Notes under the pieces: model-generated
Told to the model about the DNA's origin: nothing
What the model saw: only the letters and a program-made list of their open reading frames with translations
Databases searched by the model: none
Position numbers and translations under genes: made by a program
Source: Vampirovibrio sp.
GTDB lineage: Bacteria; Cyanobacteriota; Vampirovibrionia; Vampirovibrionales; Vampirovibrionaceae
Direction of reading: 5' to 3'
Length of the DNA stretch: 64,000 nt
Assembly (NCBI RefSeq): GCF_041737375.1
Contig: NZ_JBGSRV010000006.1
Span: 134,022-198,021, forward strand
Shown: positions 1-25,588 of the stretch, in pieces
Layout: each line of letters opens with the position of its first letter
Position numbering within the stretch: position 1 is the stretch's first letter

Positions 1-514
1 CAATCCTACCGAGTGGCATGGCACCAAGGGTTTGGTTAAAGAACCCGATATGCCCACCGCTGAACGAAACGTGGAATTTGATTTGGCCAGCTTTCCTACC
101 CCTTGGTCATTTCAGCCTTTTACGTTTAGCCAGCAAAGCAAAGAATATACGTTTAAGCACTTTCAAGCCAGTAAAATTCCGGGTTTTGTCGTTCGATTGC
201 CTGAAGACAAAGACGGAAAACCGGATTTTCTGGTAGTCAGCCGGATTTGCCCTCACATGGGCTGTGTGTTTAACTTTTTGCCGGATCCTGCGGAGGCAGC
301 GGCTTATAACTATCCTTCCGCCAACAATCCTTTATTCGCTTGTCCTTGCCACTTGAGCGTTTACGATCCGCTTCAGTCTCAGGATGTGAGCGGTAAGTTA
401 TTGGCCGGAAAAGTGGTGAGTGGGCCTGCTCCTCGTCCGCCCAGACAGTTTCAGTTCGATATGGTAGGCTCCAAGCTGGTTATTACCACGCTTGAGGCAG
501 GAGGTATCGCCTAA
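1..514 (+). CDS. Rieske [2Fe-2S] iron-sulfur protein, probably N-terminally truncated by the window edge
   Basis: Both Rieske cluster boxes are present in the ORF (CPHMGC ... CPCHLSVYD). No N-terminal TM anchor is visible, so the gene likely starts upstream of the window. Its stop abuts the start of the cytochrome b gene (taa atg). Confidence 0.8.
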   Translation, partial: NPTEWHGTKGLVKEPDMPTAERNVEFDLASFPTPWSFQPFTFSQQSKEYTFKHFQASKIPGFVVRLPEDKDGKPDFLVVSRICPHMGCVFNFLPDPAEAAAYNYPSANNPLFACPCHLSVYDPLQSQDVSGKLLAGKVVSGPAPRPPRQFQFDMVGSKLVITTLEAGGIA

Positions 515-2017
515 ATGGTAGCCACAAATTCTTTTGACCCCAAAGCACTCCCTGCTCAAGCCGTTAATTGGCTGAAAGAGCGGGTTCAGAAAATCGATCT
601 TTTTGATGAAACCAAAGTCGATTTACAAGCACAGTCTCCCTGGTACCAGTTGGGCGCCTTGTATTACTTGTGCTGGGTTTTGGTTCTCATTACGGGCGTT
701 ATTCTGGTTGCTATCTATCTACCGACCACCGCTCAGGCTTTTAACTCGGTGGATATTATCTCTCACAACGCCTGGGGTTCTATTTTAAGGGGAATGCATA
801 AGTATAGTGGCGACGCCATGATTATCGCCGCTACCCTTCGGGTCTACCGCATGTGGTTTACGGCTGAATACAAAAATAAGGGTGAGTTAACTTTTATTTT
901 GGGTATTTTGTTGTTGGTTATAGCCATGTATTCAGGCTTGAGTGGGTATTTGCTGATTTGGAACCAGCGGGCTTTTTGGGCCACTAAGGTTTTCGCTACA
1001 TTCCCCACCTACCTGGACATTACACCCGCTAACTGGACCTGGCCTTGGGATTTTGCCAATTACAAGGGTTCCTGGTTTATTCCCAACGCGGTTGGGGCGG
1101 TTACCCAGTTAATTGGTAATTTAACCCATCAAGGGTTCAGCACCTCTCAAATTTTAATGGGAGGAAGTTCTATTGGTCAGGCTACCATGACCCGTTTTTA
1201 CTCTCTGCACTTCGCATTATCTTTAATTTTGCTGGTGATTTCTGAAATTTATTTCTACAAAAATCGTTTGAAGCGCATCAACCTCAAAAAACCTTTGGTG
1301 CTTCTGGTGATTGCCATGTTGGTTGTAACCGCCATTATTTTCCCCGCGGAATCTGGTACGCGCGCCAACCCTGAAGTAACCCCTCTGCCTATTTTGTCAG
1401 ACTGGTACTTCCTGGCCTTATACCAATTGCTGAAATACATGGATCCTTACTGGGCCACACTTTGGACTTTGGGTATTCCTTTTGTAACCATTGGTTTGAC
1501 TTTTTTAGATTTTGGTCCTGAGCGCAACTGGTTGAAGCGCCCATTGTTTACAACCATTGGCATTATGGCGGCCATTGAGTTTATGGTGTTCTCCATGTTG
1601 ATTATCGCCAACATGGCTAACATTGAAACGGATCCGCCTTACTGGTTTGGCCATTTGATTTTGATGATCACTATTGGACAGTTCTGGCATTGGAGCATGT
1701 ATAAACAACGTCTTCCAATGACTGTGTGGATGTTATTTAACCTGGCTGCCAGTACGTTTTATCTCTTTTTCTGGCACTTGGTGGTGGAAAACTCCAAGCT
1801 GGCTGGCGCTTTTGGTGGTCACAGCATGATTGCCTGGTTTGAAATGATGTTCCATGGTGCTGCTGTGGGTATTGATTTCACCAACCTGTACTGGAATCTG
1901 CTGTGGTTTGGCTATTCCATCGCACAGATTCTGTTGGCTGCCTTCTTGTTTTGGGTAGACCGGGCTCGTCGTGATGAACGCGCAGGCACCTTGCAACCTG
2001 AAGGAGTGACTGCTTAA
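515..2017 (+). CDS. Cytochrome b (fused cyt b6 + subunit IV-like, with C-terminal extra TM helices)
   Basis: The N-terminal half aligns to cyt b6 helix B-D motifs (GMHKYSGDAMIIAATLRVYRMWF, RFYSLHF). The middle matches the PetD/subunit-IV PEWY-like region (PILSDWYFLALYQLLKY). About 150 further hydrophobic residues follow. It overlaps the next ORF by 1 nt. Confidence 0.8.
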   Translation: MVATNSFDPKALPAQAVNWLKERVQKIDLFDETKVDLQAQSPWYQLGALYYLCWVLVLITGVILVAIYLPTTAQAFNSVDIISHNAWGSILRGMHKYSGDAMIIAATLRVYRMWFTAEYKNKGELTFILGILLLVIAMYSGLSGYLLIWNQRAFWATKVFATFPTYLDITPANWTWPWDFANYKGSWFIPNAVGAVTQLIGNLTHQGFSTSQILMGGSSIGQATMTRFYSLHFALSLILLVISEIYFYKNRLKRINLKKPLVLLVIAMLVVTAIIFPAESGTRANPEVTPLPILSDWYFLALYQLLKYMDPYWATLWTLGIPFVTIGLTFLDFGPERNWLKRPLFTTIGIMAAIEFMVFSMLIIANMANIETDPPYWFGHLILMITIGQFWHWSMYKQRLPMTVWMLFNLAASTFYLFFWHLVVENSKLAGAFGGHSMIAWFEMMFHGAAVGIDFTNLYWNLLWFGYSIAQILLAAFLFWVDRARRDERAGTLQPEGVTA

Positions 2018-2343
2018 TGCCAACCACTTTTTCTAAAAGTGATAGGGAGAAGCCTTTAAATCGGCCAATGTGGTGGTTTTTCTTTCTAATCGCTACGGTT
2101 GCTGCATCGTTTGGCTTCAGGACATTTGGGGCTTTTACCTTGCGTCCGAATCTTTTGAACGCTTTTGTCTGGGCATTGGTAATGGTGCTATTGTTTGTTT
2201 CCATTGCGGTATTGGCTTACGACAGCTACGTTCATGAAAAAGGAAAAGGCAATGTGCAGAAGCCAGTCAGACTTTTTGAATGGATGATTCGGCGTGGTTT
2301 TTTGCTGAGCGTTCGTGCTGAAGATAAAGGAATTACACAATGA
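2017..2343 (+). CDS. Small integral membrane protein (2-3 TM), unknown function, translationally coupled in the cyt b operon
   Basis: Hydrophobic 108-aa ORF. Its start overlaps the cyt b stop (taATG) and its end overlaps the next ORF (ATGA). Confidence 0.45.
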   Translation: MPTTFSKSDREKPLNRPMWWFFFLIATVAASFGFRTFGAFTLRPNLLNAFVWALVMVLLFVSIAVLAYDSYVHEKGKGNVQKPVRLFEWMIRRGFLLSVRAEDKGITQ

Positions 2344-2651
2344 ATGTGTTGAAACGTTATTGGAGAGACCTGGCCGCTCTGCTGATTGCGGTTGTTTCTT
2401 TGGCTGGCCTATGGGTCATGTTTAGTGCCGAAGGTAGCATTTGGCTGGTTAAATTTGTTAATGGCAAACCCCAAGAGCTTTTGGAGCCGGTTGCCATATT
2501 GACTCAGTACAATAAAGTCATTCTTCCCAACCTGCAAAAGTATAGTTGGGCCATTGGCCTGACTTTATTTGCGGTCAGCGTTTCCTATATTTTGCTCGGC
2601 TCGCAAGATGAAATCTATACTGCACTGGATGAGCCGAATTCCAAGAAATAG
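2340..2651 (+). CDS. Small integral membrane protein (2 TM), unknown function
   Basis: 103-aa ORF with two hydrophobic segments and an ATGA overlap with the upstream ORF. Confidence 0.45.
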   Translation: MNVLKRYWRDLAALLIAVVSLAGLWVMFSAEGSIWLVKFVNGKPQELLEPVAILTQYNKVILPNLQKYSWAIGLTLFAVSVSYILLGSQDEIYTALDEPNSKK

Positions 2652-2675: not shown

Positions 2676-3821
2676 GTGTATACCGAACCGTTACAAAAAG
2701 CGACTTTGTGGTTAGAAAAGGGTTTAAATGACCTTTTTTCCCAAAAATATAACCCTTTCTATTATCACGGAGCGTTACCCAACTTTTTTATCTGGGCTTT
2801 GTTTATATCCGGATTGCTTTTGTTTGCTTATTACCAGCCAACACTTGCCACCGCTTACGCCTCTGTCCGATACATTACTTTTGAGCTTCCTTTTGGGAAC
2901 CTCTTTCGTTCTATTCACCGGTACGCCAGTGACGGGATGATGATTTTCGTCATGCTACACATGTTCAGGGTTTGGTTCACCGATCGCTACCGGGAATACC
3001 GCATTGTGCCTTGGGTGACTGGTGTGGTTTTGTTAATCATTACCTTTACCATTGGTTTAACTGGCTATCTGCTAATTTGGGACCAAGAAGCTGTTACCCT
3101 TGCCAATATGACCTTTAACCTGGTGAGCAAGACCCCTTTAATTGGCAGCGCGGTGGCCGAGTTTTTAATTGCCGGTAAAATGATTACCGATTACACGCTG
3201 ACCCGGATGATGTTTTTGCACTTGGGCATTCCCTTGTTCATGATGTTTATGTTGTGGTTACACTACCTGCGTATTACACGGCCGGTTTCAGAGCCTCCTT
3301 TGGCTTTGGTGGTTATGCTGTCGGGTGTTTTGTTTCTTTTTTCAGCGGCCTTTCCGGTTAGTTTGCAAATACTGAACGCCAATGACCCTTTGGCGACCCC
3401 TTCCTTAACCTCTGTCAGCTCTGTGATGAATTTTGATTTGTTGTACGCTTGGCCCCAGTATCTGGCCGCTCAACAAGTGGATCCTTTGCTGGTTGTGCTT
3501 TTGGTGTTGGCTGTTCCGGTCGGGTTGCTTATTTTGCCTTATTTGCAAAAGAAAGCCTTGCGTGATCAGTTTGCAACCGTTGTTCGTGAGAATTGCACGG
3601 GTTGCTCGCTTTGCTATAACGATTGCCCTTATGAGGCCATTGAAATGGTTGATCGTGGCAACGATGGCACACGTTTCAAGCGGCTGGCCGTTGTGGATCC
3701 GGGTCGTTGCGCAAACTGTGGCCTGTGTGTTGGTGCTTGCGCCTTTAAGGCTATTGAAATCCCCCGGCGCGAAACCAACAACGTGTTAGCTGAAATCGAA
3801 GCCGCTTTGACCACTTCTTAA
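2676..3821 (+). CDS. Di-heme cytochrome b N-terminal domain fused to a C-terminal 2x[4Fe-4S] ferredoxin domain
   Basis: Helix-B His pair (IHRYASDGMMIFVMLHMFRVW) and helix-D His pair (FLHLG...WLHYLR) are both at 14-residue spacing. The C-terminus has CTGCSLCYNDCP and CANCGLCVGACA 4Fe-4S motifs. Confidence 0.75.
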   Translation: MYTEPLQKATLWLEKGLNDLFSQKYNPFYYHGALPNFFIWALFISGLLLFAYYQPTLATAYASVRYITFELPFGNLFRSIHRYASDGMMIFVMLHMFRVWFTDRYREYRIVPWVTGVVLLIITFTIGLTGYLLIWDQEAVTLANMTFNLVSKTPLIGSAVAEFLIAGKMITDYTLTRMMFLHLGIPLFMMFMLWLHYLRITRPVSEPPLALVVMLSGVLFLFSAAFPVSLQILNANDPLATPSLTSVSSVMNFDLLYAWPQYLAAQQVDPLLVVLLVLAVPVGLLILPYLQKKALRDQFATVVRENCTGCSLCYNDCPYEAIEMVDRGNDGTRFKRLAVVDPGRCANCGLCVGACAFKAIEIPRRETNNVLAEIEAALTTS

Positions 3822-3833
3822 GAAGGAAAAAGA

Positions 3834-4265
3834 GTGATGACTACTGACAATACAAAACTAATCGGCCTGGTCTGCGAGCGAAGCGTGGATTTTGAAGGCA
3901 AGCTTGATGAACAAGGCAACATGACCGATCATCCTTCTGTCAAAATTATCCGGGTACCTTGTAGCGGTCAAATCCAGCCCATCATGCTGGAAACCGCGTT
4001 AAAAAACGGGGCCAGTGGTACGTTTGCATTGGGCTGCCGGATGGGTGATTGCCACTACCGTGAAGGCAATAAGTTTTGCCGCGATCGGCTGGTGGGCAAG
4101 CGCATGCCTAAGCTTAAGCCCAGCGTAGACAAGCGCAGAGTTCAAGGCTATTGGCTTTCTGCGGTTGAGTACGACAAATTAAGCGAAATGGTTGGTCAAT
4201 TTGTAGAGGATTGCAAAGCATTGCCAGCTCCTGAAGTTAAATCGACCGCTAAGGCAGCGAAGTAA
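3834..4265 (+). CDS. MvhD/FlpD-like [2Fe-2S] electron-transfer protein (methyl-viologen-reducing hydrogenase delta-subunit family)
   Basis: Signature IIRVPCSGQ ... ALGCRMGDCHYREGN ... FCRDR matches the MvhD GC.xGDCHYxxGN cysteine pattern. It starts 12 nt after the cyt b-ferredoxin gene. Confidence 0.7.
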   Translation: MMTTDNTKLIGLVCERSVDFEGKLDEQGNMTDHPSVKIIRVPCSGQIQPIMLETALKNGASGTFALGCRMGDCHYREGNKFCRDRLVGKRMPKLKPSVDKRRVQGYWLSAVEYDKLSEMVGQFVEDCKALPAPEVKSTAKAAK

Positions 4266-4278
4266 GGCATAGGAAGAG

Positions 4279-4395
4279 ATGGATATGGAAGAACGCAAGG
4301 ATATTACGCTTTTCATCAAATATGTCTGGTTTTTTCTCTTTTACTTCGCTTTGATCTTATTGATCGCCAGCTTTGGTATCATTGCAGAGAGCTAG
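4279..4395 (+). CDS. Unannotated 38-aa single-TM peptide (MDMEERKDITLFIKYVWFFLFYFALILLIASFGIIAES)
   Basis: ATG at 4279 is preceded by aggaagag, and the in-frame TAG is at 4393. The ORF lies between mvhD-like and the next membrane protein. Its size and topology resemble the small subunits of b6f-type complexes. Confidence 0.4.
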   Translation: MDMEERKDITLFIKYVWFFLFYFALILLIASFGIIAES

Positions 4396-4411: not shown

Positions 4412-4876
4412 ATGTCTAATCATCCAGACCCGCATGAAGGCCATCATTTTGATGTGACTAACGCTGAAGGGCGTTTTCATTGGTTTTTTAAAGAGTTTTG
4501 GCCCATTATTTTGCCGGGCTCGTGCTTTTTGCTTTTGTGCGCCATTCCATTAACCCTGTCCGGGATGCTGCACAATTATTTTAGTGCCTCCGATGTTGTG
4601 TGGGGCGGCTATGGACTTTTATTGATTGCAGAATTCCTGGTGGCGATTGTCATTGTTTGTTTGTTGCCCCATTTACTCGGTGTTTATATGTTGCTGTTGG
4701 CCATTTACGGGCTGGTGCTTGCTGAAAACGGCAATGCCTGGAAGGTGGGCTTTATTAGCGACGGGCATAACACCTGGATGATTAGCAGCATTGCGATTTT
4801 GTTTTTAACTTATCTGGCAATCGGAAATCTGGTTTTCCTGAATTCTTTGCGTAATCAAAGAAAAAGTCGCTTGTAA
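4412..4876 (+). CDS. Integral membrane protein (4 TM) with His-rich N-terminus, unknown function
   Basis: 154-aa hydrophobic ORF with an RBS (ggagaag) upstream. It is the last gene of the putative respiratory operon. Confidence 0.45.
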   Translation: MSNHPDPHEGHHFDVTNAEGRFHWFFKEFWPIILPGSCFLLLCAIPLTLSGMLHNYFSASDVVWGGYGLLLIAEFLVAIVIVCLLPHLLGVYMLLLAIYGLVLAENGNAWKVGFISDGHNTWMISSIAILFLTYLAIGNLVFLNSLRNQRKSRL

Positions 4877-4950: not shown

Positions 4951-5265
4951 ATGGTTAAGATTCGTTTGAAGCGTCAAGGCCGCAAACACCGTCCGTTTTA
5001 CCGGATCGTGGTTACCGATATTCGCAATCGTCGCGATGGTGCGCCTTTGTCTGAGTTGGGGTACTACAATCCAATCTCCAAAGAATTAAAACTGGACAAG
5101 CAAGCTGCTTTGGACTGGATTAGCAAAGGCGCTCAGCCTAGTGATACCGCTAAAAAGCTGATTGAAAAAGCTGATGAAGGTGGAAACCTGATTAAGCTTG
5201 AGTCAGTTAAGCGGGACAAGCTTTCTAAGAAAGCGGCTGAAAAAGCGAAAGCTACCGCCGAGTAG
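4951..5265 (+). CDS. rpsP: 30S ribosomal protein S16
   Basis: [30 protein letters not shown] is the canonical S16 N-terminus, with a lysine/alanine-rich tail. Confidence 0.9.
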
Positions 5266-7712: not shown

Positions 7713-8378
7713 TTACCACTGAGTGACCTCACCGGGGGTTTGAATCACTTGCATGCTGTTTAAATCGCTGGCGTAGTAGTTGCCTGGTTGAATCATGGCG
7801 TCGGAATCATGCCCTTTGCAAGCATAGTGGCCGGGATGCTCCTCTTCCACGAGTTCCAGCTTTGCCAGTTGGCCCATGCCTTTGTGGGCATAGCGATCAA
7901 AAATCATCAGGCGCAAGGGGCCGCCGTGTATGGCGGGCAGGGTTTTACCACTGGCTCTTACGCAAAACAAGGCCCGTTGTGTATATAGGTCTTTCAACGG
8001 CAAATATTCCACATGCCCGCATAAATTGGTTTGCTTGAGGTATTTGGCTTCTGGCTGGGGGCAAACCCGGTGCAACAGTTCTTGCACCACAAAGCCTTCC
8101 CAGGTGTCGCGGTAGGTGTAGCCATCCGCGAATACCAGCCGTCTGTTTTGCTGGATACGGGTAAATTGGGCAAAATCTTTCAAAGAAAAGCTTTGGGGCT
8201 TGTCAACCAGCCCACTCACTTCCATGGCCCATTGGTTTAAATCAACGCTTTTATAACCATCCATATAGCTGGCAGGCCAGTTGGGGAATGGGTTATTGGA
8301 CTTAACGCCCAGCTGGTCCGGCTTATCGGTAACGGAACCCAAGGTTTGATTGTGAAGACTGTAAAACATGAGGCTCAT
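7713..8378 (-). CDS. Molybdopterin-dependent oxidoreductase, sulfite-oxidase family (MsrP/YedY-like catalytic domain)
   Basis: HGGPLRLMI and the surrounding pattern match the Oxidored_molyb domain. No TAT signal is evident. Confidence 0.5.
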   Translation of the reverse strand: MSLMFYSLHNQTLGSVTDKPDQLGVKSNNPFPNWPASYMDGYKSVDLNQWAMEVSGLVDKPQSFSLKDFAQFTRIQQNRRLVFADGYTYRDTWEGFVVQELLHRVCPQPEAKYLKQTNLCGHVEYLPLKDLYTQRALFCVRASGKTLPAIHGGPLRLMIFDRYAHKGMGQLAKLELVEEEHPGHYACKGHDSDAMIQPGNYYASDLNSMQVIQTPGEVTQW

Positions 8379-14916: not shown

Positions 14917-16077
14917 ATGTCTGGAGAAAAGACAGAAAAGCCAACTGGCAAGCGTGTCTCTGACGCGCGGAACAAGGGGCAGGTTGCCAAAAGTCAGGAT
15001 TTTAACGGGGCGCTGGTTTTAATCGCGGTCACCTGGATGATGGGGTCTATGGGACCTTACACCATTAATACCGTTTACGCCCAAATGCAATATTCCTTTG
15101 GCAAGCTGTTAACCAGCCCCATGGCGCTCAAGCCTTTTAGCAAGGAAACCTTTCAGGGGTTGTTTGCCGGTACTCTGGAGTCCATGATTTGGCTGATGTT
15201 GCCCTTTTTGCTATCGGTGTGCGTAATGGCCATTATCTCCAACCTCACCCAGGTAGGCCCCTTGTTTACCATGCAAGCGCTTGCTCCCAAGCTGGACAAG
15301 CTGAATCCACTGAACGGGTTTAAACGCCTTTTTTCAATGCGTTCTGTCATTGAAGTGGTGAAGGCCATTATTAAAATGAGTATTATCGGGGCTTGCGGCT
15401 ATTCGGTCATTCGTGGCCACTTGCAGGAGTTGATGGGGTTGGGCGCCCTGGAAGTACCCACCGCGTGGGGCGTGATTGTGGGCGTGGCAGGCGAAATTGC
15501 CAAGTGGGGCTGTATCTCGTTTCTCATTATTGGTATGGCCGACTGGCGCTATCAGGCTTGGGAGATGGAAAAGCAACTCCGCATGTCCAAACAGGATATT
15601 AAAGATGAGCGCAAGAACATTGACGGCGATCCCATGATGAAAAGCCGCATGCGGCAAATGGGAATGAAGATGATGCGCACCCGTCAGCTGGCGGCAGTGC
15701 CCACCGCCGACGTGGTGATTACCAACCCCACCCACTACGCCATTGCCCTGAAATACGATCCAGACATTGCCCCTGCCCCGGTGGTGGTGGCCATGGGAAA
15801 AGATATATTCGCCCAAAAAATTAAGGAAGTGGCCAAAGAGGCAGGGGTTCCCATGGTGGAAAACAAGCCTTTGGCCCGTGCGCTTTATCCGGTGATTGAG
15901 GTGGAATGCATGGTTCCGCCAGATTTGTTTGTGGCCGTGGCCGAAGTGCTGGCGTTTGTGTTCGCCAAAAACAAGGGACGCAGGATGGCCGCCCAAAAAC
16001 GCTCTAAAGAAGCGGCCCAAAAAGAGGCGGCCCGGAAAGCGGCGGTTCAGAGAAAGCGGGAGGATGCTAGCGAATGA
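14917..16077 (+). CDS. flhB: Type III export switch protein FlhB (SctU homolog)
   Basis: N-terminal 4-TM domain and a cytoplasmic domain with the autocleavage motif NPTH (ITNPTHYAIALKYD). Confidence 0.85.
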   Translation: MSGEKTEKPTGKRVSDARNKGQVAKSQDFNGALVLIAVTWMMGSMGPYTINTVYAQMQYSFGKLLTSPMALKPFSKETFQGLFAGTLESMIWLMLPFLLSVCVMAIISNLTQVGPLFTMQALAPKLDKLNPLNGFKRLFSMRSVIEVVKAIIKMSIIGACGYSVIRGHLQELMGLGALEVPTAWGVIVGVAGEIAKWGCISFLIIGMADWRYQAWEMEKQLRMSKQDIKDERKNIDGDPMMKSRMRQMGMKMMRTRQLAAVPTADVVITNPTHYAIALKYDPDIAPAPVVVAMGKDIFAQKIKEVAKEAGVPMVENKPLARALYPVIEVECMVPPDLFVAVAEVLAFVFAKNKGRRMAAQKRSKEAAQKEAARKAAVQRKREDASE

Positions 16078-18185
16078 GTTCCCCTTTCAAAAACCTGCCT
16101 AAACTGGGCTGGAAAGACCTGCTGAAGCACAACGATGTGCTGCTGGCCGTCGGCATTGTGTTTGTGGTCACCATGATGGTGATTCCCCTTTCGCCCTTTT
16201 TGCTAGATGTGTTTTTGACCCTGAACATTGCCTTATCCGTTACCATTTTGCTGGTCACCTTATACACTCAGGAGCCGCTTCAGTACTCCACCTTTCCCAC
16301 CGTGCTGCTGTTTGCCACCCTGTTTCGTTTGGGCCTTAACGTGAGTACCACCCGCCTGATTTTGCTGTATGGCGAGGCCGGAGAGGTGGTGCATGCCTTC
16401 GGGAACTTTGTCATTGGTGGCAACTACGTGGTGGGTATGCTGATTTTCATCATCCTCATCATTATCAACTTTATTGTTATCACCAACGGTGCGGGCCGGG
16501 TATCGGAAGTAGCGGCCCGATTTACTTTGGATGCCATGCCCGGTAAGCAGTTGAGTATTGATGCCGATTTGAACGCGGGCATGATTGATGAGAAGCAGGC
16601 CAAGCAGCGCCGCCAGAATATTCAGCGAGAAGCCGATTTTTACGGAACCATGGATGGTGCCAGCAAATTTGTAAAAGGCGATGCCATTGCCGCCATTATC
16701 ATTACGGTGATTAACATTGTGGGCGGCTTGATTATTGGTGTTTTGCAAATGGGAATGCCTTTGGAACAGGCCGCCGCCACCTTTACCACCTTATCGGTGG
16801 GGGATGGTCTGGTGTCTCAGTTACCGGCCTTAATTATTTCGGCGGCCACTGGTATTTTAGTAACTCGGGTCAATGATTCTGAAATGTCTCTGGGGGATGA
16901 AATCGGGGGACAAATGTTCCAGAACCCCAAAGTCTTAGCCATTATGGGCGGCCTGATGCTGTTGATGGGTATGGTTCCCGGTTTGCCCAACCTGCCGTTT
17001 TTAGTGGTGGGCGCTTTGGCCATAGGCGGTAGTTTTTTACTGGTTAAAAATACGCGGGAACAGGCCGAAATGAAGGTTTTGGAAGACAGCAAGGCCAAAA
17101 CCGTTCAAAAAAAGAAAACCACCACCGAAAATGTACTGGATATGCTGCAAGTGGAAACCCTGGAGCTGGAGATTGGTTACCGGCTGGTGCCTTTAATAGA
17201 GGCTGAGGCAGGGGGCGATTTGCTGGATCGCATTGCCCAGATTCGTAAGCAAATCGCGCTGGAATTTGGCTTTGTGCTGCCTTCCATTCGGGTGCGAGAT
17301 AATTTGCAGTTGCCGCCCAACCAGTACAACATCAAGCTACGGGGGGTGACCATTGAGCAAGGGGAGGTGATGGCCGATTTGTGGCTGGCTATGAGTACCG
17401 ATCCTGATATTACTGAACCCATTGAAGGCATTGAAACCAAAGAACCCGCTTTTGGGTTGCCTGCCTTGTGGATTGAATCGGATGAGAAAGAGCAGGCCGA
17501 AATGGTCGGCTATACCGTGGTAAGCGCTTCTTCGGTGGTATCTACCCATTTAACCGAAATGATCAAGAAAAACGCCGCCGAAATTCTGGGCCGAGGCGAT
17601 GTGCAGAACTTGCTGGGCAATACCAGAAAGGTGAACGAAAGCCTGGTGGGCGATTTGGTGCCGGATACCCTGACTGAGGCTGAAATCCAGATTGTTTTAC
17701 AAAACCTGTTGCGGGAAAAAGTCAGCATTCGGGATATGGTTACCATTCTGGAAGCCCTCAGCTATCATTGCCGGGTGAGCAAAGAGCCTGACTACCTGAC
17801 CGAGCAGGTACGCATGGCGTTGTCTCGCAGTATTTGCAAGCAGCATCAAAACCCGGATACCGGAGAGTTGCCTGTGGTCACTCTGGACCCCATGGTGGAA
17901 GAGCAAATGGCTCAAGGCTTAACGCAGGATGGGCAAACCCTGGCCATGGGGCCTGCCTTTACCCAAAAACTGTTTGCGGCCCTCAATCAGGAAATTGAAC
18001 GGGTAATCGGTGCCCACGGGGTGCAGCCGGTATTGCTGTGTAACGCCCGTTTGCGGCTGCCGTTTCGTCGCATGATTGATCGGATGCTGCCGCAAATTGC
18101 GGTGTTGTCCTATAACGAAATTGGCCCTAGCGTGAAAGCCACCGCCGTTGGCTCGGTGCGGGTGGATTTGGCCCAGCTCGCCTAG
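16074..18185 (+). CDS. flhA: Type III export gate protein FlhA (SctV homolog)
   Basis: 703 aa with 8 TM helices at the N-terminus, the FHIPEP motif region (GEAGEVVHAFGNFVIGGNYVVG) and a large cytoplasmic ring domain. Overlaps flhB by 4 nt. Confidence 0.9.
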   Translation: MSSPFKNLPKLGWKDLLKHNDVLLAVGIVFVVTMMVIPLSPFLLDVFLTLNIALSVTILLVTLYTQEPLQYSTFPTVLLFATLFRLGLNVSTTRLILLYGEAGEVVHAFGNFVIGGNYVVGMLIFIILIIINFIVITNGAGRVSEVAARFTLDAMPGKQLSIDADLNAGMIDEKQAKQRRQNIQREADFYGTMDGASKFVKGDAIAAIIITVINIVGGLIIGVLQMGMPLEQAAATFTTLSVGDGLVSQLPALIISAATGILVTRVNDSEMSLGDEIGGQMFQNPKVLAIMGGLMLLMGMVPGLPNLPFLVVGALAIGGSFLLVKNTREQAEMKVLEDSKAKTVQKKKTTTENVLDMLQVETLELEIGYRLVPLIEAEAGGDLLDRIAQIRKQIALEFGFVLPSIRVRDNLQLPPNQYNIKLRGVTIEQGEVMADLWLAMSTDPDITEPIEGIETKEPAFGLPALWIESDEKEQAEMVGYTVVSASSVVSTHLTEMIKKNAAEILGRGDVQNLLGNTRKVNESLVGDLVPDTLTEAEIQIVLQNLLREKVSIRDMVTILEALSYHCRVSKEPDYLTEQVRMALSRSICKQHQNPDTGELPVVTLDPMVEEQMAQGLTQDGQTLAMGPAFTQKLFAALNQEIERVIGAHGVQPVLLCNARLRLPFRRMIDRMLPQIAVLSYNEIGPSVKATAVGSVRVDLAQLA

Positions 18186-25512: not shown

Positions 25513-25588
<76 letters not shown>

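Follow-up and report, generated by a model that had tools for sequence, protein, structure and literature searches.

The present study concerns a window of 64,000 nucleotides (nt) from Vampirovibrio sp. (contig NZ_JBGSRV010000006.1, positions 134,022 to 198,021) and the two cytochrome b genes of an operon found at its start, here called cb1 (515..2017) and cb2Fd (2676..3821). The cb1 protein lacks both axial ligands of the n-side (cytoplasm-side) heme bn/bH while both ligands of the p-side heme bp/bL are kept, and from its sequence it very probably binds one heme only, bp/bL. Its neighbor cb2Fd keeps all four ligand His residues and carries a C-terminal ferredoxin domain. We lean towards a reading in which cb1 is a one-heme subunit bearing the quinol-oxidising (Qo) site and is the obligate partner of cb2Fd, the two forming a naturally asymmetric cytochrome b pair. 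To our knowledge, all structurally known bc1/b6f complexes are symmetric homodimers with two b hemes per cytochrome b.

The operon lies on the + strand and is already open at the window start, as the stretch begins inside the Rieske gene. Its genes are:

2..514, + strand: Rieske [2Fe-2S] protein, 5' part lost at the window edge (N-terminal membrane anchor upstream); frame 2 open from nt 2, Pfam Rieske match
515..2017, + strand: cb1, fused cytochrome b of 500 amino acids (aa), made up of a b6-like part, a subunit IV-like part and a C-terminal extension; from Pfam, alignments and an AlphaFold2 (AF2) model
2017..2343, + strand: small membrane protein sm1, 108 aa, 2 predicted transmembrane (TM) helices; TAATG overlap with cb1
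2340..2651, + strand: small membrane protein sm2, 103 aa, 2 predicted TM helices, no His; ATGA overlap with sm1
2676..3821, + strand: cb2Fd, 381-aa cytochrome b with a C-terminal 2x[4Fe-4S] ferredoxin domain; His81, His95, His182 and His196, 6 TM helices
3834..4265, + strand: MvhD/FlpD-like [2Fe-2S] electron-transfer protein; Pfam FlpD
4279..4395, + strand: single-TM peptide of 38 aa (…FYFALILLIASFGIIAES), unannotated; found in the present analysis

The Rieske stop and the cb1 start abut (TAA followed directly by ATG), the TAATG and ATGA overlaps continue this arrangement through sm2, and the gaps after sm2 are of 24, 12 and 13 nt. Because the stops and starts abut or overlap and the remaining gaps are short, the operon is a single tightly coupled transcription and translation unit. 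The cluster boxes CPHMGC and CPCHLSVY of the Rieske fragment align to the P. aeruginosa bc1 Rieske protein (8smr_C), and its full-length relatives are of 188-220 aa with a single N-terminal TM helix. Only one Rieske gene is present in the operon. In relatives, the Rieske gene is preceded by ccoN, ccoO, two small open reading frames (ORFs) and a di-heme cytochrome c gene, and by synteny the same set should be present just upstream of the window. A second canonical cytochrome b was looked for within the window and none is present.

The four heme-ligand positions of cb1 were mapped with three independent alignments, i.e. phmmer against solved cytochrome b6, MAFFT with cb2Fd as internal control, and pairwise BLOSUM62, and all three assigned identical residues to them. 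In the phmmer alignment, helix B of cb1 reads 'rgmHkysgdamiiaatlRvyrmwf' against 'rsiHrwsasmmvlmmilHvfrvyl' of b6, and helix D reads 'rfyslH.falslillviseiYfy' against 'rfyslHtfvlplltavfmlmHfl'. His95 (nt 797-799) pairs with b6 His86 and His232 (nt 1208-1210) with b6 His187, and both are kept, in agreement with the original prediction, which had read them in GMHKY and SLHF. The partner residues which it had seen replaced, by Arg in ATLRVYRMW and by Tyr/Phe in EIYFYKN, were located as follows:

839..841, + strand: codon CGG, Arg109, at the helix-B heme bn/bH ligand position (b6 His100), phmmer alignment
1250..1252, + strand: codon TAT, Tyr246, at the helix-D heme bn/bH ligand position (b6 His202), phmmer alignment

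In b6, His86 and His187 ligate the p-side heme bp/bL, and His100 and His202 ligate the n-side heme bn/bH. Only His95 and His232 of the four His residues typical of a di-heme bc1/b6f cytochrome b are thus found in cb1, and none of the alignments to cytochrome b/b6 put His at both canonical positions of helices B and D. The suspected loss of one heme-ligating His pair was correct in that both ligands of one heme are gone; the missing His residues, however, sit on two helices. In cb2Fd all four His are present as His81/His95 and His182/His196 with spacings of exactly 14 and 14, as had been anticipated. The CxGG cysteine for heme cn is absent from both cb1 and cb2Fd in the alignment to b6, with Gln45 of cb1 standing at the b6 Cys35 position, and covalent binding of the heme cn type was excluded for both cytochromes b on this ground.

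The fold and the Qo region of cb1 are those of a cytochrome b. The Pfam models Cytochrome_B (PF00033) and Cytochrom_B_C (PF00032) matched with 87.8 bits (cut-off 27.2) and 28.2 bits (cut-off 20.7), covering the four-helix heme domain at the N-terminus and the subunit IV-like domain at the C-terminus that mark the cytochrome b/b6 superfamily. The AF2 model (predicted local distance difference test, pLDDT, 81; predicted TM-score, pTM, 0.80) has about 11 TM helices, arranged as the cytochrome b fold with three extra C-terminal helices, and its best Foldseek matches in the PDB were bc1 cytochromes b with a target-normalised TM-score of 0.55-0.58. The Qo motif is SDWY (aa 295-298), of which D296, W297 and Y298 are invariant and the first position is Ser, not Pro. 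Moreover, the Qo block of aa 138-164 and the stretch 'LPILSDWYFLA' are invariant in the cb1 family, and a Qo motif together with an adjoining Rieske gene is the combination found in the bc1/b6f type. Since the bp ligands, the p-side motifs and the Qo block are all invariant, cb1 appears from its sequence to be a functional quinol-oxidising subunit whose heme bp is also functional. It is not a cytochrome b6 in the narrow sense, as it is one fused 500-aa protein and has neither the split into b6 and subunit IV nor the CxGG cysteine. The NCBIfam cytochrome b6 model scored 116 bits against a cut-off of 325, and the ExtP model NF040969 (selenite/tellurite operon b-type cytochrome, cut-off 290 bits) gave 116 for cb1 and 147 for cb2Fd. 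The curated families cytochrome b6 PRK03735, ExtP, SoxC and QcrB were all rejected, with scores far under their cut-offs.

Two further features of the cb1 protein were observed. It has a C-terminal extension past helix H (aa ~397-500 here), and among loci L001-L032 this extension has 76-244 residues where cbb3 genes lie directly upstream and <=40 elsewhere; the short-extension loci with no adjoining cbb3 genes are L018, L020-22, L026 and L027. The extension may be a contact between complexes III and IV. A Trp-rich insertion of ~40 aa ('PANWTWPWDFANYKGSWFIPN…'; aa ~167-207, nt ~1015-1135) lies on the p side between the cd helices and helix D and divides the Pfam match into two stretches. It is found in Vampirovibrionales-type members, is shorter or missing in several deeper branches, and is replaced by unrelated inserts in some others.

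The replacement of the two bn ligands was then followed through the family. In 121 close homologues with 45-88% identity to cb1, position 95 is His in 120/120 and position 232 in 121/121. Position 109 is Arg in 100 and Lys in 21 and is never His, whereas position 246 is Tyr in 120 and Trp in one. Glu244 (codon at 1244-1246; 121/121), Arg112 and Tyr248 are invariant. An exhaustive HMMER search over 1.84 billion cluster representatives set the cb1 family sharply apart: ~25 clusters were found at E <= 1e-31, all with the helix-B pattern H-R/K-R and with Y, H, R or F at position 246 of helix D, and the canonical cytochromes b which rank below them have H-H (His at 109) with three exceptions. The deep-branch members P0247, P0250-52 and P0255 have His at position 246. 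The substitutions are fixed among the close homologues (121/121), among the deep family members (20/20) and at all related loci. Because the substitutions are fixed throughout the family, they are not due to chance or to a sequencing error, and the loss is, as judged from these sequences, a selected family trait and not a lesion. A pseudogene or a sequencing error was ruled out by this family-wide fixation together with the intact reading frames in every locus.

The n-side region of cb1 shows both relaxed and conserved features. Across 98 cb1 sequences with identity down to 45%, 102 columns are invariant and the p-side packing motifs T/S60-G61 and T/S143-G144 are intact, and the n-side Gly of helix C is relaxed (Ala in 62, Gly in 20, Ser in 16) and has no Thr/Ser before it. 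Neither cb1 nor the small subunits have any other invariant His. As alternative His ligands only columns 205 (87%), 392 (82%) and 421 (62%) came into question, and these were rejected, being lost in deep branches. Of the small subunits, sm2 is free of His and sm1 contains a single one, located at the end of a helix, and they are predicted to be unable to supply heme ligands. An alternative ligation of an n-side heme in cb1 appears unlikely because position 246 varies between Y, H, R and F and position 109 between R and K, leaving no constant ligand. The original prediction had spoken of a mono-heme or differently ligated cb1; the first part agrees with the family-wide absence of both bn ligands, but the second finds no constant alternative ligand and seems improbable.

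Around the former region of heme bn and of the quinone-reducing (Qi) site, a charged cluster was identified which consists of Asp28, Asp31, Glu32, Arg/Lys109, Arg112, Glu244 and Arg254, with codons within 596-610, 839-850, 1244-1246 and 1274-1276. Its residues show no or almost no variation down to the deepest branches (Asp28 in 18/20; position 109 is Arg/Lys in the deepest alignment). By comparison with the bovine numbering, Glu244 takes the position of Met194, which lines the Qi pocket. The cluster could form a salt-bridge network that fills the pocket, a docking surface for the iron-sulfur (Fe-S) arm described below, or a site for another cofactor.

The partner genes supply the elements which cb1 lacks. 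In cb2Fd, both the n-side and the p-side packing motifs are invariant, including T/S115-G116 and T/S129-G130, and the ferredoxin domain (aa ~300-367) has 8 invariant Cys. The pairing of cb1 with a di-heme cytochrome b-ferredoxin fusion, which had been proposed from the window, is therefore consistent with a partner that keeps 4 His, the heme-packing motifs and 8 Cys and that is co-located with cb1 in 27/27 loci. As an even number of TM helices precedes it, the ferredoxin domain is predicted to be cytoplasmic. The protein has six helices, lacks helices G/H and has no PEWY-type motif, with WPQY at the equivalent place. It is identical to database protein P0121 from a Vampirovibrio sp. contig. 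The ORF 3834-4265 matched PF02662 (FlpD) with 83.8 bits and aligns to MvhD (5odc_D) with the motifs 'rvpCsG' and 'GCxxGdCHy' kept; with the FlpD domain and the conserved [2Fe-2S] Cys it belongs to the MvhD/FlpD family. An additional observation concerns His31 of cb2Fd (nt 2766-2768), which is invariant in the close family and is placed at the n-side start of helix A, one residue past the b6 heme-cn Cys position. It is Thr in Sysuimicrobiota, in Armatimonadota and in the unclassified metagenome-assembled genome (MAG) of locus L026, and Leu in one Caldisericia locus. This residue may be part of the Qi site.

The operon ends with the 38-aa peptide at 4279-4395, the sequence of which is MDMEERKDITLFIKYVWFFLFYFALILLIASFGIIAES. 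A peptide of this type ('…ILLIASFGIIAES') recurs after MvhD in many loci of four phyla and is probably a further subunit of the complex. In P0250/L006, P0251 and P0255 the cb1-type protein carries it as a C-terminal fusion. Because the post-MvhD peptide is fused to cb1 in these other lineages, cb1 is tied to the distal end of the operon, and this Rosetta-stone argument suggests that cb1 and the distal operon genes would form one complex.

The distribution of the family was studied by a genome scan with one genome per GTDB species and by contig look-ups, from which the best 80 of about 600 matches were taken, and the taxonomic list is accordingly a lower bound. Among these 80, no family member has an identity above about 52%. 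cb1-type genes are present at least in the Vampirovibrionia (Melainabacteria), namely in Vampirovibrionales, Obscuribacterales and Caenarcanales, and also in Holophagaceae, Candidatus Sysuimicrobiota, Armatimonadota (Candidatus Fervidifonticultor) and Caldisericia, and further in a MAG labelled Anaerolineae and in unclassified MAGs. A four-His, eight-Cys cb2Fd accompanies the cb1-type gene in all 27 loci with enough flank, and MvhD follows cb2Fd in all 24 loci with enough sequence; five truncated loci were uninformative for these counts. The operon of the cb1 family always includes a Rieske protein, cb2Fd and an MvhD-like [2Fe-2S] protein, and a cbb3 oxidase is usually encoded directly upstream. 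One or two small ORFs of 72-133 aa are found at the position of sm1/sm2 in the related loci examined. In Armatimonadota the order is di-heme c, Rieske, cb1, small ORF, cb2Fd and MvhD with no cbb3 nearby, so the oxidase is optional.

A different arrangement was seen in two Caldisericia loci, where the order is Rieske, cb2Fd, MvhD, Fe-S protein, HydB/ShyB/AsrA-like, HydG/ShyC/AsrB-like and cb1:

L027 3700-9982 and L032 121-6508, MAGs: Caldisericia variant operon, in which cb1 has a PDWY motif

The HydG/ShyC/AsrB-like subunit is of the FAD/NAD(P)H/[2Fe-2S] type and the HydB/ShyB/AsrA-like one is an Fe-S subunit; by this gene order a cytoplasmic NAD(P)H-linked module stands between the two cytochrome b genes. 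Near the operons of L027 and L032, neither oxidase nor cytochrome c genes were detected. The Caldisericia operon appears to connect the cb1 family to pyridine nucleotides in an anaerobic lineage, as far as gene content can tell.

From these features a possible electron path can be proposed. cb1, cb2Fd, the Rieske protein, the small membrane subunits and MvhD would assemble as an asymmetric complex in which cb1 and cb2 take the places that the monomers have in a bc1 dimer. Such a cb1:cb2 pair would be the simplest arrangement because cb1 provides Qo and bp, cb2Fd provides bp and bn, and there is one Rieske gene. We consider a heterodimer of cb1 and cb2Fd with electron transfer across the subunits to be a little more probable than its contrary. 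Quinol would be oxidised at the Qo site of cb1, and the first electron would pass through the Rieske protein and the di-heme cytochrome c to the cbb3 oxidase, both of the latter being encoded upstream in relatives. The second electron would move from heme bp of cb1 over a bp-bp bridge to heme bp and then to heme bn of cb2; it would have to cross to cb2 because cb1 has no bn/Qi of its own. Heme bn of cb2 would in turn be wired to the two [4Fe-4S] clusters, to the [2Fe-2S] cluster of MvhD and then to a cytoplasmic redox partner, which in the Caldisericia version could be the NAD(P)H-binding flavoprotein module. At bn of cb2, the low-potential electron could reduce quinone at a Qi site of cb2 or could leave through the Fe-S arm; alternatively the arm could be an inlet from NAD(P)H or ferredoxin towards heme bn and a Qi site. 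The role of the Fe-S arm and the direction of flow in it are speculative. The altered electron path of the Q cycle which the original prediction had suggested would agree with all the sequence-level tests carried out here.

Several observations weigh against the reading of cb1 and cb2Fd as one asymmetric complex, the whole of which is drawn from sequence and gene context. Neither the window nor the Melainabacterial loci were found to contain an NAD(P)H/Fe-S partner module, which leaves MvhD with no cytoplasmic partner there. By rough estimate, output to ferredoxin-level acceptors against the membrane potential would be marginal, which makes the output direction doubtful; NAD(P)+-level acceptors would be borderline, and flow in the inward direction, with NAD(P)H or ferredoxin as donor to bn/Qi, would be easy. 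cb1 and cb2Fd align with only 79 bits and are not close paralogues. Gly47 of helix A, which packs against heme bn, is invariant in the cb1 family and so is Arg112, the usual partner of the heme bn propionate; given these two residues, a planar or anionic group could still occupy the n-side site of cb1, and in the deep members with His246 a five-coordinate heme may be present.

The last of these points leads to another possible explanation, in which the n-side site of cb1 still holds a second cofactor with non-canonical ligation or none, the protein being functionally di-heme. A heme might then be bound through Tyr246 or Lys/Arg109, or it might be five-coordinate or ligand-free like heme cn. 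Besides G47 and R112, the high conservation of Tyr246 and Tyr248 in the close family, the His246 kept by some deep members and the (near-)invariant polar cluster of D28, D31, E32, E244 and R254 around the site would fit such a cofactor. We nevertheless regard it as quite unlikely, as no ligand is constant at 246 or 109, the n-side Gly of helix C is mostly Ala, and Gln45 stands in place of the CxGG Cys; moreover, we know of no heme with Arg as an axial ligand. That cb1 is a degenerate, redox-inactive scaffold or a decaying paralogue would agree with the disappearance of 2/4 canonical ligands and with the NCBIfam b6 and ExtP scores far under the cut-offs. Decay is very hard to reconcile with 102 invariant columns in 98 sequences, with the invariance of the bp ligands, the p-side packing motifs and the Qo block, and with a family that persists across phyla with its frame intact in every locus, and this explanation is considered highly improbable.

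A more serious possibility, though still an unlikely one, is that the neighboring genes encode two independent enzymes. A homodimer of cb1 would then work with the Rieske protein, the cytochrome c and cbb3 as a simplified quinol:cytochrome c/O2 oxidoreductase with no Q cycle, in which heme bp buffers the second electron until it ends on the Rieske cluster or at the other Qo site, and cb2Fd with MvhD would be an independent, quinone-linked cytoplasmic oxidoreductase. Cytochromes b with 4Fe-4S and MvhD domains are known with no Rieske protein ('PDWF-FeS clade', Magnetospirillum and Turneriella; PMC4122944), and because that clade has no Rieske protein an Fe-S arm can be a self-standing module; it also suits this explanation that cb1 and cb2 are not recent paralogues. 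On the other hand, the synteny is strict in 27/27 loci of at least five phyla, even where cytoplasmic modules lie between the cytochrome b genes, and the post-MvhD peptide is fused to cb1 elsewhere. A cb1 homodimer would also offer no exit for the bifurcated electron, yet the Qo and bp elements are the most conserved in the protein. These points argue against two separate enzymes.

The cb1 protein was further compared with known systems. It shares with the canonical bc1/b6f cytochromes b (PDB 2zt9_A, 1vf5_A, 2qjp_A) the fold, the domains, the adjoining Rieske gene, the Qo block with a D-W-Y Qo motif, and the heme bp ligands with their packing motifs. It differs from them in the replacement of both bn/bH ligands (R/K109; Y/H/R/F246), in having SDWY instead of PEWY/PDWY, and in being accompanied at all times by a second, different cytochrome b. 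It also lacks the CxGG Cys for heme cn, is fused instead of split and has a variable C-terminal extension. The nearest precedent for the loss of a bn ligand is the cyanobacterial cytochrome b 'subfamily K', in which the bn His of helix 2 is replaced by Glu/Gln and both the heme number and the function are described as obscure (Dibrova et al. 2017, PMC5600118). Subfamily K is thus likewise a natural cytochrome b homologue with this His replaced. Its members are short and four-helical, have no helix-1 glycine and occur beside a normal b6f complex (PMC5600118), whereas cb1 has 500 aa, Arg/Lys109, G47, its own Rieske protein and a dedicated di-heme partner, and is not a member of this subfamily.

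For the Fe-S arm, the nearest precedent is the 'PDWF-FeS' clade, whose cytochromes b have 4Fe-4S and MvhD domains and a PDWF motif with no Rieske protein in the cluster (Kao & Hunte 2014, PMC4122944). This clade and cb2Fd with MvhD share the domain combination of a bc-type cytochrome b connected to Fe-S and MvhD elements of the cytoplasm. In a comparison by description only, cb2Fd has the ferredoxin fusion but lies outside the clade, as MvhD has a gene of its own, cb2 shows WPQY and only six helices, and the operon contains a Rieske gene and cb1 (usually with cbb3). The SDWY motif does not occur in the text of PMC4122944.

The anammox Rieske/cytochrome b complexes with a cytoplasmic NAD(P) oxidoreductase (Kustd1480-85 and Kuste4569-74) are the nearest precedent for a cytoplasmic end of the low-potential branch, which according to the summary in PMC12954380 is proposed to end in a cytoplasmic redox module and not only at a Qi site. 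The Caldisericia version of the cb1 family resembles them in carrying an NAD(P)H-binding HydG/AsrB-like subunit. The anammox complexes differ from the cb1 family in having b6 and subunit IV, multiheme cytochromes c and different cytoplasmic modules, and neither a mono-heme cytochrome b nor a second cytochrome b is mentioned for them in the text consulted. The electron route has its closest precedent in bc1 engineered by cross-inactivation, with which intermonomer bL-bL transfer on the catalytic time scale was established (review PMC7908018, section 3.3). There the electron passes from the Qo site of one monomer over the bL-bL bridge to the n side of the other monomer, exactly the route which a cb1/cb2Fd pair would impose. 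The cross-inactivated enzymes are laboratory constructs of a homodimer, whereas the cb1/cb2Fd asymmetry would be natural, genetically fixed and ancient. None of these four precedents joins a one-heme Qo subunit to a two-heme, Fe-S-fused partner.

The locus type itself has been met before. A Melainabacterial complex III/IV fusion operon was reportedly described by Soo et al. in Science in 2017. Such a 'complex III/IV fusion', with petB/petC-like genes adjoining a C-type (cbb3) oxygen reductase, is also given in Matheus Carnevali et al. 2019 (PMC6349859), and by the relevant passages of that paper the present operon is the same type of locus. The proteins are annotated there as cytochrome b6f subunits, and the passages on cytochrome b, complex III and Rieske say nothing of the lost ligands. 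In the full-text-searchable literature, subscription literature being outside this search, no account was found of the ligand loss or of cb1, cb2Fd and MvhD in combination.

The asymmetric complex, if correct, would bear on several questions of bioenergetics. What the bL-bL bridge ('H-shaped' electron transfer) means physiologically has been called 'unclear but intriguing' (review PMC7908018); cross-dimer transfer would be obligatory in the cb1/cb2Fd complex, which would make it a ready-made test system for this question. The Fe-S/MvhD arm bears on whether Qo bifurcation can drive cytoplasmic reductions, as proposed for anammox, and on electron input from the n side that assists the Q cycle. 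Input of the latter kind has been proposed for ferredoxin and b6f in cyclic flow. In its widest form, which we put forward as a rather doubtful proposition, the family would represent an ancient class, spread over several phyla, of Rieske/cytochrome b complexes that are obligately asymmetric and physically coupled to cbb3, with no Qi in the Qo subunit. All low-potential electrons would then be forced over the bp-bp bridge into a different cytochrome b and would pass through its heme bn, two [4Fe-4S] clusters and the [2Fe-2S] cluster of MvhD to an acceptor in the cytoplasm, for example NAD(P)+ by way of a HydBG/AsrAB-like module, or NAD(P)H/ferredoxin would provide input. Were this true, the family would provide a natural complex III-IV that bifurcates electrons from quinol (or is assisted by ferredoxin/NAD(P)H). 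In the aerobic, non-photosynthetic lineage that is sister to Cyanobacteria, this locus represents complex III; it has been annotated as 'b6f-like' in arguments on the origin of aerobic respiration, so its real architecture affects these arguments.

Two further genes of the window lie near the operon, and neither of them is conserved beside it in relatives:

4412-4876, + strand: protein of 154 aa with multiple TM helices and no family match, located after the operon and before rpsP (4951-5265)
7713-8378, - strand: 221-aa molybdopterin-oxidoreductase-domain (MsrP/sulfite-oxidase-like) protein

Farther along, at 54000-58000 (- strand), a low-GC island was observed with a GC content of 0.38-0.40, compared with about 0.49 elsewhere. 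Horizontal acquisition or a link to host interaction is possible for this island, which contains:

54010-55128, - strand: ankyrin-repeat protein
55185-55982, - strand: unknown protein
55993-57663, - strand: ClpB-like AAA+ ATPase

Two ordinary genes were also noted in the window:

16074-18185, + strand: FlhA (FHIPEP, flagellar export)
25513-25588, + strand: tRNA-Thr(CGT)

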